This document shows, in pieces, positions 24,089 to 28,322 of a DNA stretch of 64,000 nucleotides. This DNA comes from Bordetella parapertussis. Lineage in GTDB: Bacteria > Pseudomonadota > Gammaproteobacteria > Burkholderiales > SG8-41. The position numbers and the translations under genes were made by a program. The stretch is taken from positions 9,753 through 73,752 of the forward strand of contig CAMATZ010000017.1 in the NCBI GenBank assembly GCA_945861275.1, written 5' to 3'. Below the pieces are notes generated by a model. That model made no database searches, was not told the DNA's origin, and saw nothing but the letters and a program-made list of their open reading frames with translations. How positions within the stretch are numbered: the stretch's first letter is position 1; each line of letters begins with the position of its first letter.

Positions 24089-25873
24089 TTCGCCATGGTG
24101 CACCACGTTTCTGGCGACCCGGATATCCGCCTCGGTGTCGTTGGCGAGCACGGGATTACCGCTGTTGGTATTGCGCGCACGGCGAGGAAAATTGCTGCTG
24201 GTGACATCGACCTCGATGCGGTTGCCGGCGCGGATGGTGTGATGAATGTGAGCGAGGTTGATGGTCAATGGGTAGATGCGATCGGCTTCCAGGTGCTGCG
24301 CGACGGGCGAGGGCAAATCCCGATACATTGCGCGCACTACACCATCCATCAACAACATTGCACGGCCATCTGCTTCGACTTCGATCAGCTTGGCGACAAA
24401 ATCGGTATCCGGGCAATCCGACTGCACATGCAGCGTGACGCGAACCTGGCCGGCGATGGTGAGATCCGCGGTCAGGACCTCGCTGCGATAGATGAGCCCG
24501 TAATCCGGCAGCGCTTGGGCAGGGCGCTGATCACGCGGCCCGGCATCGATCAGCATGTTGCGCCCGCCAAGTGTCGGGATGGGGTGGTGCGGATCGTAGG
24601 TGTAGCAGCGCGCTGAGCCGCCGGGCGCGGAAGCCGACAAGCTGCCATCGCCACACAGATAAAACCGCTGCGGCGCCGCACCGGGCGGCGGCCAGCGTTC
24701 GGCGTAGCGCCAGTCATTGGCCACATAAGTGCTGCGATTTTCCACCCAGGCGCGCGGGGAATAGAACACCGCGGGTCGTTGCATGATTCCAGTCTGCTCA
24801 CCCTTCAACCAGTAATCGAACCATTCGAAGTAAGGGTCGCGCGGCCAGAATTGGTTCTCGTAAATAAAGTAGTGGTCGTTGGGGCCGATCCACAGCAACT
24901 GATTGCCGGCGCGTGATTGAATGTCGCTGAATGCCGCGATCACGCTCGTCTGAAAGATGTCATACCAGGTGGTGGCGTGAAATCCGGGAATCTCGATGCT
25001 GCGACGGAAATTGTGCTGAGCGCGAAAAGTGTCAGACGCAGGATGCGTAATGATCTCGTCCAGAAAAGGCTGCCAGGTGGAAAAATCCGGGTAGTGCGAC
25101 AGCGGCAGGCGCATCCAGTCCTCGCTGCCAACAAAGGGCAGGCTCGTGCGGCAGGCCGATTCCAGCCGCGCGTAACGCGCGTTGGCCGCAGTGGCAGCCT
25201 GATCCAGGTCTGCCGCGCTGATGCCGAGTTTGCGCATGATGGCTGTACGGTGCGACTGCGACAGGCCTGGAATATTCTTCGCCACCCATAACCACAGCCG
25301 TTCCATCTCGATTGCGTTGCCCTCGTAGACCACGTCGTCGTAGATGCTGGATGCGCCGACTTGCGCGAAAAAGGCGCGCAGGCTGGGGTGACGCTGGGAG
25401 GCTGCAGCAAACGTCGTTGTAGCACCCGCCGATGAACCGGACATGCCTATCATTCGATTGCACCAGGGCTCACTTGCGATCCACTCCAGCGTGTCGTAAC
25501 CGTCCGCGGCATCGTCTGCGTACACATGGTCTTCGCCTTCGGACGCGTAGCGCCCGCGCGTGTCCTGGTAGACGGCCACGTATCCCTGCGTGACGATATT
25601 CCTGTAGCCTCGCAGAATGGAGCCGCGCATCGGCGCAGCGGCGCTCGGCAGCCAGCCTTGTGTGCAATCGGTGTGCGCTGTGCCCTCGGACGCAGTGCTG
25701 CCAGTGATAGCAGTGATACCAGTGATACCAGTGATACCATAGGGCGTGCGTTGCAGGATCACGGGAAATCGCGGCCCACCCGTCGGCGGCAGATAAACGA
25801 AAGTGTTGAGCTTTACGCCATCGCGCATCGGCACGCTGGCCTGAAACATTCGCACGCCGTTGAAACTTTGCAT
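24047..25873 (-). CDS. CocE/NonD family alpha/beta hydrolase (X-Pro dipeptidyl-peptidase S15-like) with a (GIT)n repeat insertion
   Basis: RTPYG motif. ~600 aa with C-terminal beta-sandwich. Start chosen at MQSFNG. Confidence 0.7.
   Translation of the reverse strand: MQSFNGVRMFQASVPMRDGVKLNTFVYLPPTGGPRFPVILQRTPYGITGITGITAITGSTASEGTAHTDCTQGWLPSAAAPMRGSILRGYRNIVTQGYVAVYQDTRGRYASEGEDHVYADDAADGYDTLEWIASEPWCNRMIGMSGSSAGATTTFAAASQRHPSLRAFFAQVGASSIYDDVVYEGNAIEMERLWLWVAKNIPGLSQSHRTAIMRKLGISAADLDQAATAANARYARLESACRTSLPFVGSEDWMRLPLSHYPDFSTWQPFLDEIITHPASDTFRAQHNFRRSIEIPGFHATTWYDIFQTSVIAAFSDIQSRAGNQLLWIGPNDHYFIYENQFWPRDPYFEWFDYWLKGEQTGIMQRPAVFYSPRAWVENRSTYVANDWRYAERWPPPGAAPQRFYLCGDGSLSASAPGGSARCYTYDPHHPIPTLGGRNMLIDAGPRDQRPAQALPDYGLIYRSEVLTADLTIAGQVRVTLHVQSDCPDTDFVAKLIEVEADGRAMLLMDGVVRAMYRDLPSPVAQHLEADRIYPLTINLAHIHHTIRAGNRIEVDVTSSNFPRRARNTNSGNPVLANDTEADIRVARNVVHHGESTPSFIEIPVIAQ
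25702..25737. repeat. tandem 9-bp repeat (CAGTGATAC x4) inside the CocE/NonD CDS, encoding GIT/AIT repeats
   Basis: Four direct 9-mer copies are visible. Repeat length is a multiple of 3, so any copy-number change stays in frame. Confidence 0.6.
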
Positions 25874-26291
25874 CACGCGGTCTCCACTGTCCGGCAATAG
25901 CGCAGCTCTATAGCCGACTGCGCCGCTGCGCATCCTGTTACCTGGACTGCATTATGTGACGATTGCCTACTTGGCTAAGCACAATCTCCTATGCCTAAAT
26001 GCAATGGGTATTCCGCGAATTGAAATTCCCTTGACGCGCGAAAAATCTTCCGGCAGACTGCGCGCCCTTGGACGAAGCCCTAGAATGCTCCACCGCACAC
26101 GACCATGATGATTACGCGCTTATACGGAATACTCGCGGTATCGCTGCCTGCGCTGCGAGGCGCACGCACGCCCATTTTTGACAATCTATGCCACGAGCCA
26201 AAAAGCGGCTATGCCGCGCAGCGCGAAGATCAGACTCAGAGTCCGGAAGATGGCGGTTAGCCAGTAGACCGCACAGGTTTCACATCCAGCC

Positions 26292-26322
26292 CGGACAGCG
26301 TGATGCTCTCCGGGCTTTTTGT
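26292..26322 (+). terminator. rho-independent terminator-like hairpin (CCCGGA...TCCGGG followed by CTTTTTGT)
   Basis: Stem plus T-run. Sequence-related to the hairpin at 26976-27012. Confidence 0.45.
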
Positions 26323-26331
26323 ATTCCGGGC

Positions 26332-26520
26332 TTAGCTGACCATCAACAAGTCGGTCAGCCGGCAGTCCAGCGCCGTCAGTAAAGCACCAACCACGGCTGA
26401 ATTGAAGTGGCTGGATTTGCCGTCAATGATGCGGCCAAGTTGCGATTCTGAAATGTTGACACCCAGGGCCTTGAGCCTGCGGCTCAGGGCGGAGACGGAA
26501 CGGATGCCCCGTTCCGCCAT
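26332..26520 (-). CDS. small XRE-family helix-turn-helix transcriptional regulator (62 aa)
   Basis: MAERGIRSVSALSRRLKALGVNISESQLGRIIDGKSSHF... shows a typical Cro/C1-type HTH. Confidence 0.55.
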   Translation of the reverse strand: MAERGIRSVSALSRRLKALGVNISESQLGRIIDGKSSHFNSAVVGALLTALDCRLTDLLMVS

Positions 26521-26627
26521 AACCACACGGGCGCGCCATTTTAGCCGGCACGGCTTGATAGATGACTTTGTTGCCTTAGCTACCATTAGATCGACCCTCA
26601 CAAATCGATAAGCGGAGTGTAGCAGTT

Positions 26628-26659
26628 TTTGCATAATATGCAAAATATTTGCATAAAAT
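26628..26659. promoter_or_regulatory. operator-like palindrome TTTGCATA-A-TATGCAAA plus a half-site TTTGCATAAAAT, immediately upstream of a TTGACA-N17-TAAAGT promoter-like element
   Basis: Perfect 8-1-8 inverted repeat in the divergent intergenic region between the XRE gene and the 26754 ORF. Confidence 0.4.
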
Positions 26660-26753
26660 GATTGACAAGGCATTTTCTGTCCGATAAAGTCGCGCCCCAG
26701 ATGAGAGACGAGTGGTCTCTTTAACTTTTACCCAAGGCATAACGAGTTCAACC

Positions 26754-26948
26754 ATGACAACCGTACTGCACAAACGCATAGCGCAACGGCTATCCAGCCG
26801 TCAGGGGCGCATTACGTCCGTCCAGCCGTGGTGCGGTATGGATCGACTCGTCGCCGCGTTCGCGATCACGTCCGCGCCCAATCATGGTTATGGATTAGAG
26901 CGTGATACGTGTACTGCGTGTGCAATTTGGGAGAGATTGAGGATGTAA
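26754..26948 (+). CDS. hypothetical small protein (64 aa)
   Basis: ORF downstream of the promoter-like element and followed by a terminator hairpin. No recognizable domain. Confidence 0.3.
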   Translation: MTTVLHKRIAQRLSSRQGRITSVQPWCGMDRLVAAFAITSAPNHGYGLERDTCTACAIWERLRM

Positions 26949-26975
26949 GTAAGCCTCAGTCTCAAAGCTGCAACA

Positions 26976-27012
26976 AGCCCGGATTGCACCGCAAGGTCTC
27001 CGGGCTTTTTGT
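26976..27012 (+). terminator. rho-independent terminator-like hairpin (CCCGGA...TCCGGG followed by CTTTTTGTTTT)
   Basis: Stem plus T-run directly before the first tRNA-like gene. Confidence 0.5.
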
Positions 27013-27026
27013 TTTGGAAATGAGTT

Positions 27027-27120
27027 GCATGGTTGGCCGAGTGGCCAGAGTAACCAAGGACGCCTGCCTGTAGAGCAGGATTCGTAAAGAACAACGGTGG
27101 TTCAAATCCATCACCATCCA
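27027..27120 (+). tRNA. tRNA-Tyr(GUA)-like, class II; probably degenerate (C2:C71 mismatch, over-long D-loop)
   Basis: Hand fold: GAGTGGCCAGAG D-loop resembles tRNA-Tyr. Anticodon stem CCTGC/GCAGG, loop CTGTAGA, long variable arm, T-arm GGTGG-TTCAAAT-CCATC. Confidence 0.35.
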
Positions 27121-27122
27121 CC

Positions 27123-27199
27123 GCCCCGCTGGCGGAACAGGCATACGCGCCGGTCTTAGAAACCGGTTTTTCCGAGTTCGAATCTCGGGTGGGGCACCA
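27123..27199 (+). tRNA. tRNA-like, anticodon UAG (Leu) in a class-I (short variable arm) body
   Basis: Acceptor GCCCCGC/GTGGGGC, disc A, encoded CCA. Anticodon arm CCGGT-CTTAGAA-ACCGG. T-arm CCGAG-TTCGAAT-CTCGG. Confidence 0.5.
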
Positions 27200-27361
27200 A
27201 GTTTTTGCAGTAACCGCGCCGGCATAGCGACCGGGGAACGCGGATTGATCTTTAACAATATGGATGTGGTTAACAGTCTGTTGTCGCCCGGCGAGGCGGG
27301 CAGCCGTGTCTTCGGGCAGGGCGGCTTTGTTCCTCGCCGGGCAGGGCAGCAGATGTATTAA

Positions 27362-27437
27362 GCAGACATAGCTCAGTTGGAAGAGCGCGACGCCGCCAGC
27401 GTCGAGGCCGCGAGTTCGAGACTCGCTGTCTGCTCCA
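27362..27437 (+). tRNA. tRNA-Gly(GCC)-like with C32C33 in the anticodon loop (CCGCCAG)
   Basis: Near-identical architecture to bacterial tRNA-Gly(GCC). Perfect acceptor and T-arm. Loop TTGCCAA changed to CCGCCAG. Confidence 0.6.
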
Positions 27438-27440
27438 TAC

Positions 27441-27515
27441 GAACCGTTCGACTTCGGGTGAAGTCTCGAGCCTTTCAAGCTCGCAAGATGGGTTCAACTC
27501 CCATACGGTTCGCCA
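27441..27515 (+). tRNA. tRNA-Glu(UUC)
   Basis: Perfect 7-bp acceptor, loop CTTTCAA, 4-nt variable region, disc G, encoded CCA. Confidence 0.7.
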
Positions 27516-27521
27516 GTTTAA

Positions 27522-27609
27522 GGAAGGCAATCCCGGCGTGGGCTGGGCGCGGTCTTGAAAACCGATGGAGCCGCGAGGCTTGGAGTTCGACTCTACCTGC
27601 CTTCCGCCA
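27522..27609 (+). tRNA. tRNA-Ser(UGA)-like, class II; weak T-stem, possibly a pseudogene
   Basis: Acceptor GGAAGGC/GCCTTCC, anticodon loop CTTGAAA, long variable arm. T-stem has only 3 of 5 pairs. Confidence 0.4.
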
Positions 27610-27616
27610 AGAAATT

Positions 27617-27692
27617 ATCCCCGTAGCTCAGCGGATAGAGCAGCGGATTACGAATCCGCAGGCCGCAGGTTTAAATCCTGCCGGGGATGCCA
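27617..27692 (+). tRNA. tRNA-Arg(ACG)
   Basis: Acceptor ATCCCCG/CGGGGAT, D-arm GCTC-AGCGGATA-GAGC, loop TTACGAA, T-arm GCAGG-TTTAAAT-CCTGC, CCA. Confidence 0.7.
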
Positions 27693-27769
27693 GCATGCGA
27701 CGCGGCTGCAGTATGGCCCGATCGGACCTCACACCGATCGTACCGGCAACGGTAGCGTCGACCACAAAG

Positions 27770-27862
27770 GGAGAGATGGCCGAGCGGTTTAAGGCGCTTG
27801 CCTGCTAAGCAAGAGCTGTCTGAAAAGATGGCGCCAGGGTTCAAATCCCTGTCTCTCCGCCA
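27770..27862 (+). tRNA. tRNA-Ser(GCU), class II
   Basis: Acceptor GGAGAGA/TCTCTCC, D-arm GCC-GAGCGGTTTAA-GGC, loop CTGCTAA, 21-nt variable arm, CCA. Confidence 0.7.
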
Positions 27863-27876
27863 GCGTTGTTTTGCAG

Positions 27877-27947
27877 TGCCCTTGCCGCTCCTCCTCCGCG
27901 GCAAAGGGTGTTTTGCCGCGGCGCAATGCCGCGGTTTTTTTGGGGCG
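27877..27947 (+). terminator. two consecutive hairpins; the second (GCCGCGGCGCAATGCCGCGG followed by TTTTTTT) is a canonical rho-independent terminator
   Basis: GC-rich stems; the second is followed by a T7 run. Located inside the tRNA array. Confidence 0.5.
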
Positions 27948-28019
27948 TTAGCTTAGTAGGCCGAAAGCATCTGATTGTCGATCAGAAGATCGCGGGTTCA
28001 ACTCCCGCACGCCTCGCCA
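27942..28019 (+). tRNA. tRNA-Asp(GUC)-like
   Basis: Acceptor GGGGCGT/ACGCCTC, loop TTGTCGA, T-arm GCGGG-TTCAACT-CCCGC, disc G, CCA. Confidence 0.55.
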
Positions 28020-28035
28020 GTTTTCTGTCTGAACG

Positions 28036-28071
28036 GATGGCTTCTGCGTTCGAATCGCAGGTGTCGTACCA
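28036..28071 (+). pseudogene. orphan tRNA 3' fragment (T-arm CTGCG-TTCGAAT-CGCAG, acceptor 3' strand, ACCA) with no matching 5' half
   Basis: Perfect T-arm and CCA end, but no complementary 5' acceptor strand upstream. Confidence 0.3.
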
Positions 28072-28072
28072 T

Positions 28073-28150
28073 GCCCCTGTAGCTCAACGGAACCAGAGCA
28101 CGCGGCTTCTACCCGCGCTGATGCGGGTTCGAATCCTGCCAGGGGCGCCA
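28073..28150 (+). tRNA. tRNA-Arg(UCU)
   Basis: Acceptor GCCCCTG/CAGGGGC, anticodon arm CGCGG-CTTCTAC-CCGCG, T-arm GCGGG-TTCGAAT-CCTGC, CCA. Confidence 0.65.
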
Positions 28151-28157
28151 CATTACC

Positions 28158-28233
28158 GGTTCGGTAGCTCAGCAGGCAGAGCAACGGGCTCATAACCCGG
28201 AGGTCCCAGGATCGTAGCCTGGCCGAACCACCA
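28158..28233 (+). tRNA. tRNA-Met(CAU). It has the initiator-like CGGG/CCCG anticodon stem and CTCATAA loop but a G1-C72 pair and an odd T-loop ATCGTAG
   Basis: The hand fold closely parallels E. coli tRNA-fMet in the anticodon arm and variable region. The T-loop lacks T54 and A58. Confidence 0.5.
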
Positions 28234-28240
28234 CCATTAC

Positions 28241-28317
28241 GCTGTCGTAGCTCAGTTGGCAGAGCAGCCGCCCTGTAAGCGGAAGCGCGTCCGTTCGATT
28301 CGTGACCGACAGCACCA
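28241..28317 (+). tRNA. tRNA-Thr(UGU)-like with C32C33 (loop CCTGTAA) and a degenerate T-arm; likely pseudogene
   Basis: Perfect acceptor GCTGTCG/CGACAGC and Thr-like D-arm. The T-stem does not pair. Confidence 0.4.
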
Positions 28318-28322
28318 GTAAC

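Follow-up and report, generated by a model that had tools for sequence, protein, structure and literature searches.

Long accessory transfer RNA (tRNA) arrays are found widely, both on chromosomes and on plasmids and integrative elements. Here we describe the region that precedes one such array in a stretch of 64,000 nucleotides, hereafter the window (contig CAMATZ010000017.1 of assembly GCA_945861275.1, deposited as Bordetella parapertussis; G+C content 59%), in whose coordinates all positions are given. A cassette extending from approximately 26288 to 33217 holds, in this order, a regulator gene, a leader open reading frame (ORF), the tRNA array with a gene for the RNA ligase RtcB, an SPFH gene and an HNH endonuclease gene. 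The segment 26288-27012 is probably the control region of this horizontally acquired L-type tRNA operon (tRNAs, RtcB, SPFH and HNH). We consider it on balance probable that the array is under two-layer control, in which a repressor-controlled promoter is followed by a ribosome-dependent attenuator placed before the first tRNA. The features of the control region are the following.

26288-26322, plus strand: hairpin 1, AGCCCGGACAGCG-TGAT-GCTCTCCGGGCT followed by TTTTTGT, 10-15 nt past the stop codon of the helix-turn-helix (HTH) regulator gene
26332-26586, minus strand: XRE-family (Pfam HTH_26) regulator, 84 aa (Pfam match, homologues, AlphaFold2 model)
26591-26608, minus strand: invariant 18-nt box TCGACCCTCACAAATCGA in the 5' untranslated region of the regulator, including the Shine-Dalgarno (SD) sequence GAGGG (conservation)
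26616-26624, minus strand: probable extended -10 box of the regulator promoter, TGCTACACT, with a predicted start near 26609 (AGTGTA(G/C/T)CA kept at one position)
26627-26645, no strand: operator-like dyad O1, TTTTGCATA-A-TATGCAAAA, over the -35 region of the regulator promoter (palindrome, conservation in clade A)
26648-26664, no strand: operator-like site O2, TTTGCAT-AAA-ATGATTG, merging with the array promoter's -35 box (conservation in about 50 loci)
26662-26690, plus strand: predicted array promoter, TTGACA (26662)-N17-TAAAGT (26690), with a predicted start near 26697 (promoter scan, conservation)
26703-26721, plus strand: 5'-terminal stem-loop of the leader transcript (stem covaries among relatives)
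26754-26948, plus strand: leader ORF, 64 codons and a stop, with a weak SD (frame open in relatives, synonymous bias)
26916-26931, plus strand: 5' strand of the antiterminator, GCGUGUGCAAUUUGGG, encoding the leader codons C-A-I-W-E (pairs with 26978-26992)
26933-26963, plus strand: inner hairpin within the antiterminator (four pairs with double changes)
26975-27012, plus strand: intrinsic terminator, AAGCCCGGA...UCCGGGCUU and U-tract (G+C-rich stem of 9 bp)

Relatives of this locus were collected by a scan for the regulator family in one genome per species, from metagenome contigs and by exact protein look-up, and are labelled L0xx or L1xx. Clade A includes the window, clade B is a second clade that bears an attenuator, and the distant clade comprises loci whose array begins with tRNA-Met.

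The regulator

The minus-strand gene encodes a Cro/C1-type HTH protein that matches PF13443 (HTH_26) with 34.4 bits (cut-off 22, E = 2.7e-8). An earlier interpretation made from the letters of this DNA only, here called the sequence-only reading, had recognized the XRE family and the strand correctly and had assigned the protein 62 residues. The most likely start is the ATG at 26586, which has the ribosome-binding site GAGGG and gives 84 residues. This start is preferred because the 98 database homologues measure 62-99 residues, mostly 79-84, and because the basic stretch KPRRLKWRARVV, which lies N-terminal to the start of the shorter form, is conserved in them. Nearly all of these homologues carry PF13443, and the region of the recognition helix is highly conserved among them.

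The protein consists of a stand-alone DNA-binding domain with a basic N-terminal tail and has no sensor domain. An AlphaFold2 model obtained from the homologue alignment (predicted local distance difference test score, pLDDT, of 80) displays a predicted five-helix XRE fold, whose best Foldseek matches are all XRE-type domains with root-mean-square deviations of 1.4-2.5 Å. These include SaPI Stl-N, CylR2, XRE proteins from Mycobacterium and Rhodococcus, C.AhdI, ClgR and SinR. Searches of the PDB and NCBIfam with the regulator sequence gave no match. The regulator is expected to bind the dyads described below in a sequence-specific manner.

Divergent promoters and operator-like dyads

Counted from the 84-residue start, the gap between the regulator and leader starts is about 167 bp, and not the 230 bp or so that had been proposed. 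Within it the octamer TTTGCATA occurs three times in alternating orientation, all at 26628-26655, and these are its only copies in the whole 64 kb, in agreement with the half-site repeat of the sequence-only reading. The copies build a 9-1-9 palindrome (26627-26645), which is the one noted earlier with its extent corrected from 8-1-8, and a second palindrome, 8-3-8 at 26637-26655, that overlaps it. Since about eight perfect 8-mer palindromes are expected by chance in each simulated window, a single one is not rare, and the evidence for an operator is the clustering of the copies, the conservation and the A+T content of the dyad stretch, which at 76% lies in the top 0.1% of the window.

The consensus of O1, TTGCAT-N3-ATGCAA, is kept in clade A about 20 bp upstream of O2, and in locus L076 it is replaced by the covarying and still symmetric dyad TTTCAG-N4-CTGAAA. 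Conservation of O2 reaches further: anchored on the -35 box, TT(G/T)CATAA(A/G)ATG(A/C)TTGAC is kept in about 50 distinct loci whose regulators share 49-100% identity. Its core is the dyad CAT-N3-ATG, which is fixed in position and whose right arm merges with the -35 box. No further operator-like sites were found elsewhere in the cassette, including the stretches before RtcB, SPFH and HNH.

The promoter-like element TTGACA-N17-TAAAGT, also part of the sequence-only reading, is the sole such match in 25800-27400. In the same 50 or so loci the -35 hexamer is retained as TTGAC(A/T) with a -10 box 17 nt downstream; the version in the window is a near-consensus sigma-70 promoter, and that of plasmid pM7012 from Burkholderia sp. 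M701 is a perfect TTGACA-N17-TATAAT. On the minus strand, AGTGTA(G/C/T)CA stands at the same position in nearly all loci across clades; in the window it reads TGNTACACT, the reverse complement of AGTGTAGCA (26616-26624), and is a probable extended -10 box of the regulator's own promoter. The picture of an XRE regulator with divergent promoters and dyad operators facing a tRNA array thus agrees with the one drawn earlier. From the positions of the dyads, we would expect the array promoter to be repressed and the regulator to be autoregulated.

The box TCGACCCTCACAAATCGA in the regulator leader is invariant in six of six clade A loci and nearly so in the distant clade. This conservation far exceeds what the SD sequence GAGGG needs, and the box may be a translational operator or an additional DNA site.

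The A+T-rich repeats can also be read as the architecture of a stable-RNA promoter, that is, as an UP element or a Fis-type site, in which case the XRE protein would act elsewhere or on itself and the array would be under the attenuator alone. The stretch does lie directly upstream of the -35 box of a tRNA promoter with its 76% A+T, one 8-mer palindrome is statistically unremarkable, and O1 is missing from the conserved features of the distant clade. We nevertheless judge this reading improbable: the three alternating copies of one octamer, unique in 64 kb, speak against it, as does a CAT-N3-ATG core fixed in position in about 50 loci beside a conserved recognition-helix region. The dyad of L076, different in sequence and yet symmetric, and the linkage of the regulator to the array, which is strict at 48% identity or more (see below), argue in the same direction.

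A conserved terminator and antiterminator

The two related terminator hairpins that had been seen to bracket the module are borne out by the pattern AGCCCGGA-N-TCCGGGCT, of which the window contains exactly two copies (26288-26316 and 26976-27006) where none is expected by chance. TTTTTGT comes after each of them. Hairpin 1 is kept after the HTH stop codon in L009, L011, L015, L040, L042 and L043, with preserved stems and variable loops. Its plus-strand T-tract would stop transcription that comes into the cassette from the left, and the hairpin would also provide the regulator mRNA with a 3' stem-loop. Two other explanations were considered and rejected. A dispersed element of the repetitive extragenic palindromic (REP) type does not fit only two copies in 64 kb, each position-conserved in relatives; and hairpin 1 together with the ORF 26105-26260 does not represent a decayed second leader and attenuator, given that no antiterminator complement was found upstream and that the hairpin is better read as the conserved one at the 3' end of the regulator gene.

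The second hairpin is an intrinsic terminator by its geometry. Its stem is paired at 98.8% in 14 sequences, four of which have an A-U pair changed to G-C (one compensatory pair), and at 97.6% in clade B (24 sequences with both clades together). A longer helix competes with it: the segment CCCGGAUUGCACCGC (26978-26992), which comprises the 5' arm and the apparent loop of the terminator, is the 3' strand of an antiterminator whose 5' strand lies within the end of the leader ORF. The minimum free energy (MFE) fold of 26900-27026 is the antiterminator and not the terminator, with -44.1 kcal/mol for the antiterminator conformer and -29.2 kcal/mol for the terminator conformer, a difference of approximately 15 kcal/mol on naked RNA. 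When 26918-26960 is blocked, as it would be under a ribosome, the terminator becomes the MFE structure.

The antiterminator is well supported among the relatives. With the 3' arm of the terminator removed, the same long-range helix forms in 27 of 27 distinct relatives, and RNAalifold predicts it independently from the 14-sequence alignment. In clade A, 83% of the alignment cells are paired, compared with 25-41% when the partner strand is slid by 1-3 columns; six pairs have changes on both sides, and none of 500 shuffles reaches the observed score. Clade B (10 sequences), whose helix encloses three hairpins, shows 92% pairing as opposed to 25-47% for slid partners, with five double-change pairs. 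At least four sequence variants of the helix remain complementary: GUGCAAUUYGGG/CCCGGAUUGCAC, AUCAUCCGGG/CCCGGAUGAU, AGUCCGGG/CCCGGACU and GCGGAGAUUC/GGAUCUCCGC. On this covariation, the terminator and the antiterminator are a conserved, mutually exclusive pair. The sequence-only reading had raised the possibility that read-through into the array is controlled here, and the second hairpin does appear as the terminator half of a conserved switch.

That hairpin might also be the plain terminator of a small protein gene, the array being transcribed from one or more promoters of its own further downstream. The strong terminator geometry would suit such an arrangement, as would another terminator-like hairpin within the array (see below), which suggests several transcription units. 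We regard it as very unlikely, given that the U-tract ends only about 15 nt before the first tRNA-like gene and that no promoter-like site follows; the short distance leaves no room for a separate array promoter there. Moreover, a covarying and more stable competing helix in every relative is unlike an ordinary terminator.

A search of 25500-32500 with Rfam cmscan at E ≤ 1 returned tRNA-type matches and noise only, with nothing in 26697-27026. A T-box or another known riboswitch was accordingly discarded as an identity for the leader at this threshold.

The leader ORF

The 64-codon plus-strand ORF at 26754-26948 was confirmed. Every relative with the second hairpin has an ORF of 57-127 codons that ends 27-43 nt upstream of the terminator, crosses the 5' strand of the antiterminator and has its stop inside the enclosed region; in the window the UAA (26946-26948) is located in the loop of the inner hairpin. 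The frame shows no internal stop in 23 distinct sequences, where the two alternative frames contain 89 and 55. Of the differences between codons that are one nucleotide apart, 42-50% are synonymous in frame and 14-26% in shifted frames, an enrichment of about two-fold, and the indels between close relatives are of 3 or 9 nt, that is, multiples of three. Together with the 98 homologues of the regulator, the frame kept open in 23 of 23 sequences shows that both small ORFs are conserved in relatives.

The encoded peptide, by comparison, diverges quickly. No Pfam domain, and no HTH, was detected in the leader ORFs of the window, of clade B or of pM7012, and no protein homologue of the 64-residue product appeared in a search of 5.8 billion sequences; on these grounds a known protein family was rejected for it. 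This is as expected if selection keeps the ORF translated and scarcely constrains its product. Because of its fast evolution and because its 3' end lies within the attenuator RNA, we take the ORF to act as a leader and not as a second repressor. The leader peptides do share the C-terminal motifs AIWERLRM, AIREKFLM and IIRGLMPQVAGG; these motifs, like the conserved 'loop' of the terminator, are explained largely by the RNA pairing of the antiterminator. In clade B and pM7012 the SD sequence of the leader is strong and canonical (AGGAGA or GGAG, with a GTG start).

A start-stop mini-ORF, GGGAGA-N8-AUG-UAA, is invariant in clade A, with UUG-UAA in L076. It was considered as a ribosome sensor and discarded as the general mechanism, since clade B and pM7012 have no start codon there.

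A proposed mechanism

The arrangement suggests the following mechanism. In the first layer, the 84-residue XRE protein would bind O1 and O2 between the two divergent promoters. Occupancy of O2 would repress the array promoter by overlapping its -35 box, and occupancy of O1, over the regulator's own promoter, would lead to autoregulation. In the second layer, transcripts from the array promoter would carry the 64-codon leader and then the terminator about 15 nt before the first tRNA-like gene. A ribosome that translates to the leader stop would prevent the antiterminator helix, whereupon the terminator would form and end the transcript at approximately 27010. A ribosome stalled earlier, or not loaded, would leave the antiterminator to form, and RNA polymerase would enter the tRNAs, RtcB, SPFH and HNH. 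Because the antiterminator conformer is the more stable one, read-through should be the default for RNA that is untranslated or that carries an upstream-stalled ribosome.

Under healthy translation the array would thus be doubly silenced. Stalls might be caused by cleavage or shortage of tRNA, by ribosome-targeting antibiotics or by starvation, and repression might be relieved, in a speculation borrowed from the Anabaena papers cited below, by turnover of a small labile repressor when translation fails. Silence in normal growth and induction by translational stress are predictions from the architecture. The structure of the second layer emerges from the comparison of relatives; its dependence on the ribosome we infer. 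Tentatively, and with slightly less than even confidence, we further suggest that the leader is a general sensor of translation speed, such that any ribosome stall, including one that follows tRNA cleavage by toxins or anticodon nucleases, would release spare tRNAs and RtcB.

Several observations weigh against the two-layer reading. All of it is computational, with predicted transcription starts, repressor binding and termination. At the promoter, O1 is not conserved outside clade A and is absent from the distant clade, and the A+T-rich stretch ahead of the -35 box may act as an UP element, perhaps in addition to being an operator. The SD sequence of the leader is weak in the window and its close relatives, the leader ORF in relatives is never predicted by gene callers, and the 64-residue peptide lacks a run of regulatory codons for one amino acid of the kind seen in trp, his or phe leaders. 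The excess of third-position changes in the leader is modest (1.3-1.5 times), and the codon-level tests used alignments guided by the protein translation. The conserved peptide ends reflect largely RNA pairing and not protein constraint. In clade B about 29 nt separate the 5' strand of the antiterminator from the stop codon downstream; a ribosome at the stop would not cover that strand, so blocking would have to be steric or kinetic in this clade. The distant clade has the regulator, the promoter and O2 without leader or terminator, for which reason the attenuator would be an optional second layer. Finally, four clade B loci (L032, L033, L034 and L081, from metagenome-assembled genomes and metagenome contigs of Oxalobacteraceae, Paucimonas and Undibacterium) combine the regulator, the complete attenuator and a leader ORF preceded by a strong SD, with no tRNA following: the region downstream of the attenuator gave no tRNA or Rfam match and contains only an ORF of 115-117 residues without Pfam domains.

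Some of these points are shared by a serious rival of the ribosome model, in which the switch is real and is set by a protein, an RNA (a tRNA or tRNA fragment) or a small ligand acting on the enclosed hairpins, the ORF being incidental or encoding a small protein of its own. The strong conservation of the enclosed hairpins, above all of the three in clade B, speaks for it, and the ORF, with 57-108 codons, is long for a leader; the weak SD in the clade of the window and the origin of the conserved peptide ends in RNA pairing likewise suit it. The absence of any Rfam family, T-box included, from 26697-27026 at E ≤ 1 tells against it, and so does a frame that is open in all 23 sequences and enriched in synonymous differences in spite of the divergence of the peptide. 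A stop codon placed always within the enclosed region and ahead of the terminator, and the canonical SD of clade B and pM7012, count against it as well, and we hold a factor-dependent switch to be unlikely, if far from negligible.

Distribution and linkage of the cassette

The association of the regulator with tRNA genes was assessed in distinct loci for which 700 nt or more of upstream DNA were available, a locus being positive when a divergent tRNA lay within 1.7 kb. All 17 loci with regulators of at least 60% identity were positive, as were 36 of the 42 at 48-60%, compared with 1 of the 11 below 48%. Of the 59 loci at 48% identity or more, 35 have RtcB, HNH and/or SPFH genes on the same strand as the array. 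The arrays of the relatives hold up to 24 tRNAs, and that of pM7012 holds 37. Where the host is named, it nearly always belongs to the Betaproteobacteria (Burkholderiales, Rhodocyclaceae, Gallionellaceae, Accumulibacter, Propionivibrio and Pseudothauera rhizosphaerae). For those window proteins that have exact database copies, most named members of the protein clusters are metagenome-assembled genomes annotated as "Burkholderiales bacterium". Because the genes beyond the regulator vary from locus to locus, the regulator seems to mark one edge of a mobile cassette.

The single positive locus below 48% identity (L102) is that of pM7012 (NC_022995.1, 435455-449706), a conjugative plasmid of 582 kb from a cultured strain. 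Its order is the HTH gene (WP_023842719.1), a divergent leader of 108 residues (WP_156903417.1, annotated as hypothetical), the attenuator, 37 tRNAs and HNH. A search for plasmid DNA similar to 26200-27130 gave no match.

This distribution bears on the description of the module as phage-like, on the analogy with a cI/cro switch and on the idea that it may be the remnant of the element that delivered the array. A bistable immunity switch of the lambda type, or the leftover immunity region of a delivering prophage or element, would account for the divergent promoters, the XRE repressor and the tandem dyads, and distant relatives of the regulator, below 45% identity, do adjoin tyrosine recombinases on plasmids. 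The plus-strand ORF, however, has no HTH or other domain, evolves fast and has its 3' end embedded in the attenuator RNA. Only one weak tblastn match to the regulator was found among 50,697 phage records, and no integrase or phage gene adjoins the module within the window, where the cassette lies among ordinary genes of metabolism, with peptidase S15, PrpD and MFS to its left and SGL and CoA-transferase to its right. The term 'phage-like' is accordingly not supported. Nor is the 'remnant', since regulator, leader, array and accessory genes travel as an intact cassette in many Betaproteobacteria and on pM7012; because these are conserved together, the control region is best regarded as the array's own. 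With no second DNA-binding protein and no phage context, the lambda-type cI/Cro class was rejected, and we attach very little probability to an immunity switch or its residue.

Relatives of the HTH_26 regulator at 37-45% identity also occur on plasmids of Variovorax, Mycobacterium, Rhodococcus and Streptomyces (L101, L103, L104 and L105). In these the regulator gene is immediately preceded by a tyrosine recombinase gene, or by two, and its surroundings are free of tRNAs; the array regulator may be derived from the regulator of a recombinase module. The actinobacterial relatives examined (37-40% identity) have no tRNAs within 6 kb. As these plasmid relatives are outside the array-linked clade, linked to recombinases and without tRNAs, they were discarded as a bridge to the mycobacterial arrays that carry XRE genes.

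The tRNA array and accompanying genes

The genes downstream of the control region are the following.

27027-31153, plus strand: L-type array, about 23 tRNA or tRNA-like genes with RtcB lying among them (ARAGORN, Rfam)
29048-30268, plus strand: RtcB RNA ligase, 406 aa, with a probable start at 29048 and its end at 30268 (SD AAGGAGG, length in relatives)
31427-32572, plus strand: SPFH/Band_7 gene (present with the array in relatives)
32621-33217, plus strand: HNH endonuclease gene (present with the array in relatives)

The array is long, dense and on one strand, is linked to HNH and RNA-repair genes, and has a patchy distribution with varied flanks, all of which are marks of the L-type; SPFH and HNH genes also accompany the arrays of relatives. 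The second hairpin does lie about 15 nt before the array, as the sequence-only reading had it, and what it had taken as the first tRNA (27027-27120) is not an intact one. This Tyr-like gene with a GTA anticodon scores 33 bits in Rfam, is missed by ARAGORN and carries a 9-nt insertion in the D-arm that is lacking from the intact tRNA-Tyr which L010 and L015 have in its place; the gene is probably in decay, and the first intact tRNA starts at 27123.

Other members of the array deserve mention. Two genes are missed or mis-called by ARAGORN, a long-arm tRNA at 27522-27605 with 46.5 bits on the tRNA-Sec model (gathering score 47) and one at 28241-28314 with 46.6 bits as a tRNA, and a third, at 31007-31080, is assigned an anomalous 'anticodon' of 2 nt. 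The mechanical ORF of RtcB (28964-30268, 434 residues, TTG start) overlaps a tRNA-Pro, and the ATG at 29048, which gives 406 residues as in relatives, is probably the true start. Between tRNA-Ser(GCT) and tRNA-Asp(GTC) lies a strong terminator-like hairpin (27915-27945; 9 bp, 7 of them G-C, followed by T7), which may indicate that the array has more than one transcription unit or internal attenuation points; no convincing internal promoter was found within the cassette. A nested inverted repeat of 268 nt (28366-28633) is located between two tRNAs, and its arms, of 35, 57 and 24 nt, are 94%, 79% and 88% complementary, respectively; it could be an insertion resembling a miniature inverted-repeat transposable element (MITE) or a very long RNA hairpin.

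Discussion

If true, the model proposed here would explain, by a mechanism encoded directly in cis, how translational stress induces L-type tRNA arrays, with leader and attenuator coupling the transcription of spare tRNAs and of a tRNA ligase to the performance of the ribosome. To our knowledge, only one long accessory tRNA array, that of Anabaena, has a known regulator, and the module would be a second, independent solution in Betaproteobacteria, with a regulator of another family encoded beside the array. We likewise know of no earlier ribosome-mediated attenuator shown to control tRNA genes, and this one, if real, would be the first. The model also bears on how mobile elements may buffer their hosts against tRNA-targeting toxins and ribosome-targeting antibiotics, and pM7012, which has the same design in the cultured Burkholderia sp. 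M701, offers a ready experimental model. Our search of the full-text literature, the coverage of which is incomplete, returned no paper on a cis-encoded XRE regulator with its operator, or on a leader-ORF attenuator, before a tRNA array.

By its length, its density, the linked HNH and RtcB genes and its patchy, partly plasmid-borne distribution, the array belongs with the L-type arrays of Santamaria-Gomez et al. The silent L-array of Anabaena responds to translation inhibitors with more than 100-fold induction, and rtcB and an HNH gene are regulated together with it (PMC8421152); the autoregulated repressor of the array, TrcR, also has a slipin gene in its regulon (PMC10272220). The two systems resemble each other in the long, horizontally spread array with HNH, RtcB and slipin/SPFH genes, in a strong sigma-70-type promoter with a small autoregulated repressor (predicted in our case) and in translational stress as the expected inducer. 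Degradation of the repressor is the stress-sensing route that the Anabaena authors suggested (PMC8421152, PMC10272220). The two systems differ in that TrcR belongs to the ribbon-helix-helix proteins, has its gene at another place in the genome and binds direct repeats of 9 nt that cover the -10 box and the start of transcription (PMC10272220), whereas here an XRE/HTH_26 protein is encoded beside the array and the inverted repeats lie at or upstream of the -35 box. For these same reasons of fold and of operator type and position, the regulator was rejected as a TrcR homologue. In addition, rtcB and the slipin gene of Anabaena lie elsewhere in the genome, only HNH being conserved beside L-operons, while here the accessory genes are within the cassette. 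A leader-ORF attenuator between promoter and array is described in neither PMC8421152 nor PMC10272220.

The arrays of the Mycobacterium G2 group share with ours the presence of XRE-family and HNH genes, found in approximately 87% of the array units (PMC5966550). Gene content is all that is reported there, and no operator, promoter or attenuator is described. As regards the regulator itself, C.AhdI, CylR2 and the N-terminal domains of the lambda and P22 repressors are among its nearest known parallels, with a five-helix HTH fold of about 80 residues and Foldseek template modelling (TM) scores of 0.55-0.7. Systems of the C.AhdI/CylR2 type also share a pair of neighbouring dyads some 20 bp apart and divergent genes, an arrangement that suggests autoregulation. 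Identity to these proteins is only 11-24%, with no match to the PDB at the sequence level, and in our case there is no partner Cro, restriction or toxin gene, the proposed target being a tRNA promoter.

For the attenuator, the closest logic is that of bmrB in Bacillus subtilis, a 53-codon leader that senses ribosome-targeting antibiotics through a terminator and an antiterminator (PMC4191407). In bmrB-bmrCD and in trp-type systems, as here, an intrinsic terminator has to compete with an antiterminator that is partly contained in a leader ORF, and a slow or stalled ribosome favours read-through, as it would in our model; with bmrB our leader further shares a long reading frame and the lack of regulatory codon runs, as would befit a general sensor of translation inhibition. 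The genes under control are transporter or biosynthetic genes in the known cases, and tRNAs and an RNA ligase here. No anti-antiterminator (segment 1 of the trp type) is predicted in our leader, which means that untranslated RNA should read through; and, in distinction to bmrB, the present switch is predicted from sequence and folding. Taken together, these comparisons place the cassette in a known kind, the stress-inducible L-array tRNA operon, to which it would add a new element, a candidate ribosome-dependent attenuator acting on tRNA genes.

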